A stretch of DNA of 37,562 bases from Candidatus Heimdallarchaeota archaeon. Lineage in GTDB: Archaea > Asgardarchaeota > Heimdallarchaeia > Heimdallarchaeales > Heimdallarchaeaceae. Under the pieces are notes generated by a model that was not told the origin of the DNA, searched no databases, and was given only the letters and a program-made list of their open reading frames with translations. Location: NCBI GenBank assembly GCA_016840095.1, contig JAEOSZ010000019.1:1-37562 (forward strand), written 5' to 3'. The position numbers and the translations under genes are program-made. Shown here one piece after another: positions 2,665 to 4,534 of the stretch (the stretch's first letter is position 1; each line of letters begins with the position of its first letter).

Positions 2665-3087
2665 TTAACTATCGTATCTTTTTCCACCATAGGATGATCT
2701 GTTGTTCCATCTACGTGGAATGTCATGTTCTTCAGTTGATATATTATTTGATTCTTCTACAGATTCAACTTTATCCTTTGAATCTTCGATAAAACCTTGT
2801 CTCCCTAAAGATAATCTGATGTTTCTTTTGAATAGAATAGTTTTTGCTGATCGAAATTGGTATGTTTCTTCACTCTTGATTTTTTCAATTTGCTCATTCC
2901 ATGCTGAGAAATAAACAACACCTGAATCATCTCCAATGAGAACATCCATTACTTGGTGTTCTTCTCCAGAATTTCTGCTGGTTACTATTCGAACTTCACC
3001 TAACTCTAAAACTTTTGCTACTAGATTAACATCTCTAATGTTTGGAGTTAGTTCTCCAACTTTCATGAATTTGATTTCTTCACTCAA
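2665..3087 (-). CDS. ssb: Single OB-fold ssDNA-binding protein (crenarchaeal SSB / hSSB1-like)
   Basis: KVGELTP..VNLVAKVLE..IGDDSG..SAWNE..LSLGRQG OB-fold signature with a short basic tail; TTG start. Confidence 0.85.
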   Translation of the reverse strand: MSEEIKFMKVGELTPNIRDVNLVAKVLELGEVRIVTSRNSGEEHQVMDVLIGDDSGVVYFSAWNEQIEKIKSEETYQFRSAKTILFKRNIRLSLGRQGFIEDSKDKVESVEESNNISTEEHDIPRRWNNRSSYGGKRYDS

Positions 3088-3332: not shown

Positions 3333-4280
3333 ATGTTTGAATTTGATATGAAATATGGCTACTATGTACGAACAGTCCTTGAATATCCAGAAATTAGAGA
3401 TTTAACTATTCGTGCAGAACAAATGGGTTTTGAATCAGCTCACGTTAACGATCACTTGATTGGGTTTGATGAAAAACAAGGGAAGAAGGAACCGTATCTA
3501 GAAGCATTAATGTTAATGAGTTCTTTAGCAGTTGAAACAAAGAAAATCAAGTTAGGACATATTGTTTTGTGTAATTCTTTCAGAAATCCAGCATATCTTG
3601 CTAAGATGATTAGCACATTAGATCATATCTCGAATGGTAGAGCACTTTTATGGTTAGGTGCAGGATGGTATGAGGAAGAGTATAAAGCATATGGATATCC
3701 ATTTCCTGACCCTAAAAGAAGAGTTGATGAATTGGAGGAATCTTTGACAATATATAAAAAATTGTTCACAGAAGATTCAACTGATTTTGAAGGAAATATT
3801 TGGAAATTAGAAAATAGCAGAAATTATCCAAAACCTATACAAAAACCTTATCCTCAGATAGTCTTGGGAACTACTGGAAAGAGAATGACAGAAATTGCTT
3901 GTCGAGAAGCAGATGGAATCAATCTTCCTTATGTAAAATTTGATGATTTGCCTAAAACAATAAGCAATATTCGAAGCTTACTTGAAAAATACAACAGAAA
4001 CACTGATGAATTTGAAATATCTTATTTTGGAGGTATTAATCTAGTTAATAACCAAGAAGAAATTGATAATCTTGTAGAAGGTATCATTGATAGAGCAAAA
4101 GAAGATTCCAAACCTACAAGAGAAGAAGTCTTAAAGAATCAATTCATTGGGTATCCAGAAGATATCAAGGAAAAACTAAATAAATATGAAGATTTGGGAA
4201 TAAGTAAAATGGTTATTGCTATCAGAAAATCTGAAAGCATTGAAGATCCAATGAAATTATTCCATGCTAAAATTATGTAA
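3333..4280 (+). CDS. LLM-class (luciferase-like) flavin/F420-dependent oxidoreductase
   Basis: AEQMGFESAHVNDH, FRNPAYLAKMISTLDHISNGR, LGAGWYEEEY, PKPIQKP. Confidence 0.92.
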   Translation: MFEFDMKYGYYVRTVLEYPEIRDLTIRAEQMGFESAHVNDHLIGFDEKQGKKEPYLEALMLMSSLAVETKKIKLGHIVLCNSFRNPAYLAKMISTLDHISNGRALLWLGAGWYEEEYKAYGYPFPDPKRRVDELEESLTIYKKLFTEDSTDFEGNIWKLENSRNYPKPIQKPYPQIVLGTTGKRMTEIACREADGINLPYVKFDDLPKTISNIRSLLEKYNRNTDEFEISYFGGINLVNNQEEIDNLVEGIIDRAKEDSKPTREEVLKNQFIGYPEDIKEKLNKYEDLGISKMVIAIRKSESIEDPMKLFHAKIM

Positions 4281-4291
4281 GAGGTTAGAAG

Positions 4292-4534
4292 ATGTATTCG
4301 AGCATATTAACTAGGTTAAGATTAATAATCGCAGAAATGGCAGAAGTTAGAAGCCATGTAATAACTACTAACACATATTTTGAAGATGATCTAAATCTAG
4401 ATAAGGACAGTTTGAGAGAACTCAAAGCTAGACTGGAAGATGAATTTGATATCAAGCTTCCTAAAAGTGTATTCAAAGAATTTAACACAGTTGGAGAAAT
4501 TGTTGGTTTTATAGAAGCAGAAATGGGGAGATAA
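4292..4534 (+). CDS. Acyl carrier protein-like protein (non-canonical attachment site)
   Basis: Ungapped match to the type II ACP pattern: IIAE..V..F.DDL.LD..EL...LEDEFDI.LP....TV.....I. A GAGG site lies upstream, and the gene starts 11 nt after the LLM gene. Confidence 0.8.
   Translation: MYSSILTRLRLIIAEMAEVRSHVITTNTYFEDDLNLDKDSLRELKARLEDEFDIKLPKSVFKEFNTVGEIVGFIEAEMGR

Follow-up and report, generated by a model that had tools for sequence, protein, structure and literature searches.

Can a protein be an acyl carrier protein (ACP) when the serine that should hold its phosphopantetheine is missing? This question is raised by a small gene in the window, by which we mean the whole stretch of DNA that was analysed, 37,562 nucleotides from a Candidatus Heimdallarchaeota archaeon. 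The gene lies at positions 4292 to 4534 on the forward strand, stop codon included, and encodes a protein of 80 amino acids, P0001, that annotation pipelines already name 'acyl carrier protein'. Free-standing ACPs are rare in archaea, and ACP and its synthase have been reported as absent from nearly all Archaea, as part of the 'lipid divide' discussion (bioRxiv 10.1101/2024.07.05.601840). A label of this kind could wrongly be taken to show that the archaeal lineage nearest to eukaryotes makes fatty acids by an ACP-dependent type II pathway. An earlier note on this DNA had offered three readings of the serine-less site: a pseudo-ACP adaptor, a carrier acylated on lysine, or an ACP with a shifted register.

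Fold and homology of the protein

P0001 is a four-helix ACP bundle and a member of the PP-binding superfamily, on sequence as well as on fold. P0001 matches 66 of the 67 positions of the Pfam model PF00550 (PP-binding) and reaches 30.2 bits (cut-off 20.8; E 5.6e-7). Many NCBIfam ACP models match it as well, every one of them under its own equivalog cut-off; the best is TIGR00517 (E 4e-13, 49 bits, cut-off 70.45). TIGR04069, the model of a peptide-maturation ACP-related protein, gives 15.8 bits and does not reach its cut-off of 70. With HMMER, 121 sequences of solved ACPs in the PDB match P0001, the best being the Borrelia ACP 2kwl (E 5.7e-12). These alignments run from residue 4 to residue 77 without a gap, and in them D37-K38 falls on the D-S of the DSL motif.

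The AF2 model of P0001, built on 25 relatives, has a pLDDT of 90.9 and helices at residues 4-17, 38-52, 60-63 and 67-78, so that helix II begins at K38. Foldseek superimposes it on the ACPs of E. coli, Aquifex, Thermus and others with TM scores of 0.84-0.90 and an rmsd of 1.3-1.7 Å, and a look-alike search of the protein atlas with P0001 returned ordinary ACP clusters only. The structure model that the earlier note had called for thus confirms the ACP helical bundle. Its reading of the sequence was right too: the translated ORF contains FEDDLNLDKDSLRELKARLEDEFDIKLP, and the gapless alignment, the serine site at Lys38 (AAG at 4403) and the Ser40 that follows are all correct in every detail. An antisense ORF (4285 to 4488, 67 amino acids), entirely within the ACP-like gene, is treated here as a by-product of AT-rich sequence.

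The closest comparison is with bacterial AcpP (2kwl; E. coli AcpP, 1l0h). The two proteins have the same length and the same four-helix fold, and they align without gaps at about 30% identity. They share the core residues, the D-D-L loop, the E-x-E-F that ends helix II and the T-V-G-[DE] that opens helix IV; the ACP core positions retained in the archaeal family are I5, L9, I12-13, F30, L34, L41, L44, I48 and F52. Unlike AcpP, the P0001 family has no Ser at the start of helix II and a charge of about -2 rather than about -15. Its helix II recognition surface has given way to variable charged residues, and it has invariants of its own in helix III, helix IV and the C-terminus. P0001 also differs in its host, an archaeon, and in that its gene is not part of a cluster for fatty-acid synthesis.

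Attachment site, surface and selection in the family

How widespread is this kind of ACP? A word-indexed search found 32 relatives, most of them 80 amino acids long (range 67-82) and 59-95% identical to P0001. All the named ones come from Heimdallarchaeota or Heimdallarchaeaceae, e.g. a protein of 'Candidatus Heimdallarchaeota archaeon AB_125' with 94% identity. A profile search without word index through 1.84 billion representatives gave only three family-level matches (150, 97 and 94 bits), followed by ordinary single-domain ACPs at 59 bits or less. No fused form of the family turned up in that search, which had no length limit; the three family-level matches are about 65-81 amino acids long, and the longer high scorers are generic tandem ACPs. 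Among 400 Asgard genomes the family occurs in 21 of 24 from the window's genus and in both from a sister genus of the Heimdallarchaeaceae; the rest of the sampled genera, further Heimdallarchaeaceae among them, yielded none. What else matched in the Asgard genomes was either an ACP with the canonical D-S-L or one domain of a large synthase. The sequencing runs that hold the stretch are exclusively DNA metagenomes from marine sediment.

Lys38 (4403 to 4405, AAG) occupies the phosphopantetheine serine position and is the first residue of helix II, both in the gapless alignments to solved ACPs and in the AF2 model. At this position the 24 species-level sequences have Lys in 14, Glu in six, Asn in two and Asp in two, and the 44 distinct family sequences have K, E, N, D or G, never Ser or Thr. 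The preceding residue, Asp37 (4400 to 4402, GAT), is D, S, N or T in the family (10, 8, 3 and 3 of the 24), which are residues preferred as a helix N-cap, and position 37 would accordingly serve as one. The apparent 'DSL' of the window owes its serine, Ser40 (4409 to 4411, AGT), to the window's immediate lineage. Position 40 is Asp in 18 of the 24 species-level sequences and G, N, E or Y in most of the rest, with Ser in the window only. The one other Ser40 among the 44 distinct sequences is in a metagenome variant 95% identical to P0001; a further metagenome member has Ala, and the AB_125 protein has Gly. In the most distant member (P0038, 94 bits) the site is serine-less and reads H-F-D-D-K-E-M, and in 24 of the 44 distinct sequences Ser and Thr are wholly absent from residues 34-42.

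Given this family-wide absence of a Ser/Thr site, the ACP-like protein would not be loadable in the conventional way; at the level of sequence, the family rules out that P0001 is a conventional carrier. Ser40 and Lys38 are not family traits, which leaves both the register-shifted ACP and the Lys-acylated carrier unsupported: Ser40 is confined to one of 24 species, and position 38 tolerates a reversal of charge. Close homologues lack the canonical DS, and the lineage-specific decay or sequencing error for which the earlier note had allowed does not apply. The loss of the serine as such is not unique to the Heimdallarchaeaceae family, judging by 82 canonical single-domain ACP representatives, of which 69 have Ser at the attachment position and 13 do not.

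A column-by-column comparison with the same 82 representatives indicates how far the surface has changed. The mean net charge of the family is -1.7 (range -9 to +4), as against -15. In helix II the hydrophobic ACP columns 39 L, 42 V, 45 V and 46 M have become D/N, K/V/A, R/G and K/L, and the gain of basic residues in this helix that the earlier note had described is borne out by K38, R42, K45 and R47 in P0001. AcpS and the FAS enzymes engage AcpP through helix II. The acidic and hydrophobic recognition helix II and the strong acidity of functional ACPs are both absent from the family when set against the 82 representatives, and the erasure of the helix II surface speaks against a PPTase or FAS-type proteins as partners.

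Conservation has instead been displaced from the recognition helix II to helix III, helix IV and the C-terminal tail. The near-invariants specific to the family are Y29, K58, N59, F61, K62, E63, F64, G72, E75, E77, G79 and R80. Tyr29 belongs to a nearly invariant loop-I motif, N27-T28-Y29-F30 (4370 to 4381), where canonical ACPs have S, N, R or D in place of the tyrosine. The most conserved block by the column statistics is residues 57-80 (4460 to 4531), comprising helix III, helix IV and the invariant C-terminal tail, with the consensus P-K-N/S-I/V-F-K-E-F-N-T-V-G-E-I-V-G-x-I-E-A-E-x-G-R. From conservation alone we infer that this block may be the binding face of the family.

The coding sequence is well maintained. 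The 80-codon frame is intact and without indels in all 24 species-level orthologues, and 20 columns are invariant, the last two residues among them. The median pairwise dN/dS is 0.27 (91 usable pairs) and falls to 0.036, at a dS of about 1, between the window and its 94%-identical relative. By these substitution rates the gene is live and under purifying selection. At residues 35-47, which take in the start of helix II and its outer face, the rate of change is about double that of the remaining protein (dN over whole-gene dS of 0.49 vs 0.24). As far as the sequences tell, this is a narrow, selected ACP family of the Heimdallarchaeaceae that is free of the cofactor site, and its taxonomic range is small.

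Several bacterial ACP-like proteins also lack the serine (P0056/P0079, P0098, P0170 and the tandem protein P0039). They are small PP-binding homologues like P0001, and some share a D-L-x-E-L-R-like helix II with the archaeal family, but they score 50-81 bits on the family profile, where family members score 94-150. Their genes lie after nusB, beside a PGA_cap gene or isolated. The singletons P0056, P0058, P0098 and P0170 have no common neighbour and give no functional lead, and we found no characterised member among the bacterial Ser-less proteins. In the P0056/P0079 type (L012:1375-1623) the site reads D-H, and there is an overlap with the end of nusB. P0039 has 295 amino acids and two tandem Ser-less repeats, with a helix II (A-D-L-K-E-L-R-K-D-L-E-N-Q-F) that resembles that of the archaeal family. 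Two metagenomic proteins of 300-335 amino acids, P0036 and P0040, carry an N-terminal lipoprotein-like signal, i.e. a hydrophobic stretch followed by S-C, and then three tandem ACP domains with Pro-rich linkers, the last domain without Ser; the apparent export of ACP domains is odd.

Gene neighbourhood and genomic setting

Immediately upstream of the ACP-like gene is its operon partner, a gene for an LLM-class oxidoreductase (3333 to 4280, forward strand; PF00296, 152.8 bits). At 195 bits its match to TIGR03560 is below the cut-off of 231, and the F420-dependent Rv1855c-type subfamily would be its nearest assignment. Its true start is probably M6 at 3348, 15 nt downstream of the annotated 3333, because its homologues are 310 amino acids long and begin at M-K-[FY]-G-Y-Y. 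CofD and CofH are both present above cut-offs in the genome, so F420 is available. Eleven nucleotides separate the end of the LLM gene (4280) from the ATG of the ACP-like gene. Directly past the LLM stop codon (4278 to 4280) and 6 nt upstream of that ATG stands a Shine-Dalgarno-like GAGGT (4281 to 4285), and the ACP-like gene would be translated from the LLM transcript.

The order of LLM and then ACP-like gene, with a spacing of 9-14 nt, is kept across four flanking contexts. In most of the window's genus the pair stands between a divergent OB-fold gene and a convergent DUF1015 gene; at the loci of the P0038 type the layout is the same, with a Peptidase_S9 gene downstream. In the sister genus an unknown gene, LLM, ACP and Peptidase_S9 follow each other on one strand, and one genome (G019) has SBP_bac_5, LLM, ACP and an unknown gene. 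In two species of the window's genus (G020, contig C119, and G038, contig C118) the LLM gene has been cleanly deleted from the locus while the ACP-like gene is intact; the best LLM elsewhere in these genomes is 34-35% identical. The co-transcription proposed in the earlier note fits the tight spacing in four contexts. The two loci that have lost the LLM gene are also rearranged: an ApbA/PanE-like gene lies between the ACP-like gene and the DUF1015 gene, there is no actin-like gene in between, and the ACP-like gene is about 150 nt from the divergent OB-fold gene.

The LLM protein has a much wider life of its own. Its orthologues in Bathyarchaeia and in Loki-, Thor- and Heimdallarchaeia are common and 60-70% identical, and in the three contexts that we examined (Heimdallarchaeum endolithica, Lokiarchaeia and Bathyarchaeia) the ACP-like gene is not beside them. 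The enzyme is unusually conserved, with 61 invariant columns in 40 sequences, and sits in unrelated contexts; this uncharacterised archaeal LLM enzyme is worth study in itself. Within the family it spans 73-86% identity, compared with 47-94% for the ACP-like protein. An LLM that stands alone in other lineages, and one that has been deleted in two species, mean that neither protein strictly needs the other. The synteny is weak evidence, because all members of the ACP-like family belong to two related genera. A complex prediction for the two proteins returned 'no answer' with a score of 0.00 in both runs, which has no bearing on whether they bind. For an LLM enzyme that acts on a substrate tethered to the ACP-like protein these results give no support: there is no tethering site, LLM orthologues occur alone elsewhere, and the ACP-like gene outlives the deletion of the LLM gene.

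Could another gene be the partner? The OB-fold neighbour (2665 to 3087, reverse strand) encodes a 140-residue Ssb-like protein with an Arg/Tyr/Asn-rich C-terminal tail, and across most of the genus it is transcribed divergently to the LLM/ACP-like operon. By phyletic match it fails as a partner, occurring in g1 and in g4, which has no ACP-like gene, and being absent from g2, which has one. The other candidates fail this match as well, the megasynthase described below being order-wide in its distribution and the LLM phylum-wide and beyond. We also looked for LYR-motif proteins (PF05347, PF13233) and found no match in the source genome; the control genomes were silent too, and this result is hence little informative.

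Is there an enzyme in the cell that could load a carrier? The source genome (3.44 Mb, 89% complete) contains a single match to PF01648, namely the C-terminal Sfp-type domain of a 3361-residue type I megasynthase (contig C57, L044:1847-11932, forward strand), and by PF01648 this 89%-complete genome has no free-standing PPTase. The search for AcpS or Sfp that the earlier note suggested thus found an Sfp-type domain in fused form only. The megasynthase consists of ER/NMO, KS, AT, a second KS-like domain, two tandem carrier domains, KR, DH and the PPTase, and is found in all 13 genera of the order, a range far wider than that of the ACP-like family. Its contig has 33% GC, and the gene is preceded by a carboxyltransferase and followed by an alpha/beta hydrolase. 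Both carrier domains read G-I-D-T-I-K, with Thr in the usual place of Ser. They share with P0001 the genome, the PP-binding superfamily and the departure from the D-S motif, at an identity of only 22%. The megasynthase carriers, however, keep a hydroxyl residue and sit in an assembly line with a fused PPTase, whereas P0001 is free-standing and keeps none.

Possible roles of a serine-less ACP

What is the protein for, if not for carrying? We think it rather probable that P0001 is a cofactor-free protein-binding adaptor or accessory subunit with an ACP fold. The pseudo-ACP adaptor was one of the readings in the earlier note, and it is favoured by the lack of any conserved Ser/Thr near the start of helix II together with purifying selection. 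The protein would descend from a bacterial-type ACP and would have kept the four-helix fold and the hydrophobic core. With the attachment site, the strong acidity and the helix II recognition surface gone, it would be neither loaded by a PPTase nor able to bear covalent cargo, and selection in two genera of the Heimdallarchaeaceae would have kept it as a cofactor-independent protein-binding module. The contact face is predicted to be specific to the family, and to be formed by the loop-I N-T-Y-F, P-K-N-I-F-K-E-F in helix III, helix IV and the C-terminal E-A-E-x-G-R. Operon conservation, and only that, makes the F420-type LLM protein whose transcript would yield the ACP-like protein the leading candidate for the partner.

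A precedent for such a change exists in eukaryotes. The mitochondrial ACP (mACP) of Plasmodium falciparum lacks the conserved Ser, is essential and acts as a Ppant-independent scaffold of Isd11-Nfs1 (Falekun et al. 2021, PMC8547962). In this protein Phe replaces the Ser and contributes to the interface with Isd11, a LYR protein (PMC8547962). Common to the apicomplexan mACP and the P0001 family is that the serine was lost and the protein retained, although the two are independent in evolutionary origin. The replacement differs: it is hydrophobic in the mACP, while position 38 of the P0001 family is variable (K/E/N/D/G) and helix II is the least conserved part of the protein, so that the interface of P0001 must lie elsewhere.

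The adaptor may of course serve a partner other than the LLM enzyme, in which case the site behind the LLM gene would be no more than a convenient insertion point for sharing a promoter. We hold this as a tentative alternative, in keeping with an LLM that is ancient and widespread without the ACP-like protein, with an ACP-like gene that survives the deletion in two species, and with a confinement to two genera that suggests recent insertion downstream of an existing gene. It explains less easily a tight gene pair that has lasted through four flanking contexts, and neither the OB-fold neighbour nor the megasynthase, nor any other alternative partner, has a matching distribution. A chaperone that binds a lipid or other hydrophobic ligand in its core pocket without covalent attachment, and hands it to the LLM enzyme, seems to us quite unlikely. 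In its favour, many enzymes related to the LLM protein use long-chain substrates, the family keeps the hydrophobic core of the ACP fold, and the two genes share an operon. That said, where helix III lines the acyl pocket in canonical ACPs, the family has I60 and the bulky, invariant F61 and F64, whose side chains would probably occupy the cavity, and the LLM works elsewhere without the ACP-like protein. It also counts against this reading that we know of no precedent for a tether-free ACP ligand carrier.

The readings in which P0001 is still a carrier, or is nothing at all, fare worse. LysW is an amino-group carrier, and by analogy P0001 might be acylated on Lys38 or bear a group on Tyr29, Thr28 or the invariant C-terminus; a cofactor on another residue may be possible on sequence grounds, and Y29 and the C-terminal E-A-E-x-G-R are family-specific invariants whose role is unexplained. 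We judge this very improbable, given that 10 of the 24 species have Glu, Asn or Asp instead of Lys38 and that no ligase, transferase or ATP-grasp gene is conserved beside the ACP-like gene in the neighbourhoods of the family loci. It is harder still to believe that Ser40 is phosphopantetheinylated in a shifted register. The window does read D39-S40-L41, and the genome does have a megasynthase-fused Sfp-type PPTase domain, but Ser40 is present in just 1 of 24 species-level and 2 of 44 distinct sequences, AB_125 having Gly and most members Asp. In the AF2 model it lies inside helix II and not at the N-terminus, and the helix offers no acidic and hydrophobic surface for recognition by a PPTase. 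Equally little credence is due to the view that the gene is a decaying, functionless relic of a horizontally acquired ACP gene. The loss of the defining residue, the narrow taxonomic range and a rate of change that exceeds that of the neighbours would all suit a relic; a frame free of indels in 24 species, a dN/dS of 0.27 and as low as 0.036, and 20 invariant columns that include the last two residues would not.

A bolder version of the argument is that evolution has made of the ACP fold a cofactor-free subunit or regulator for the F420-type LLM enzyme or, less likely, a carrier with a new attachment chemistry at Tyr29 or the C-terminal tail. We consider this unlikely on present grounds. If true, a prokaryote would for the first time be seen to retain an ACP solely for work other than carrying.

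As a probable cofactor-free adaptor, the P0001 family would give prokaryotes a parallel to the ACP of apicomplexan mitochondria, the one cofactor-free ACP that has been studied. Since the family is small, well delimited and marked by a clear conserved surface, its partner can be sought directly.
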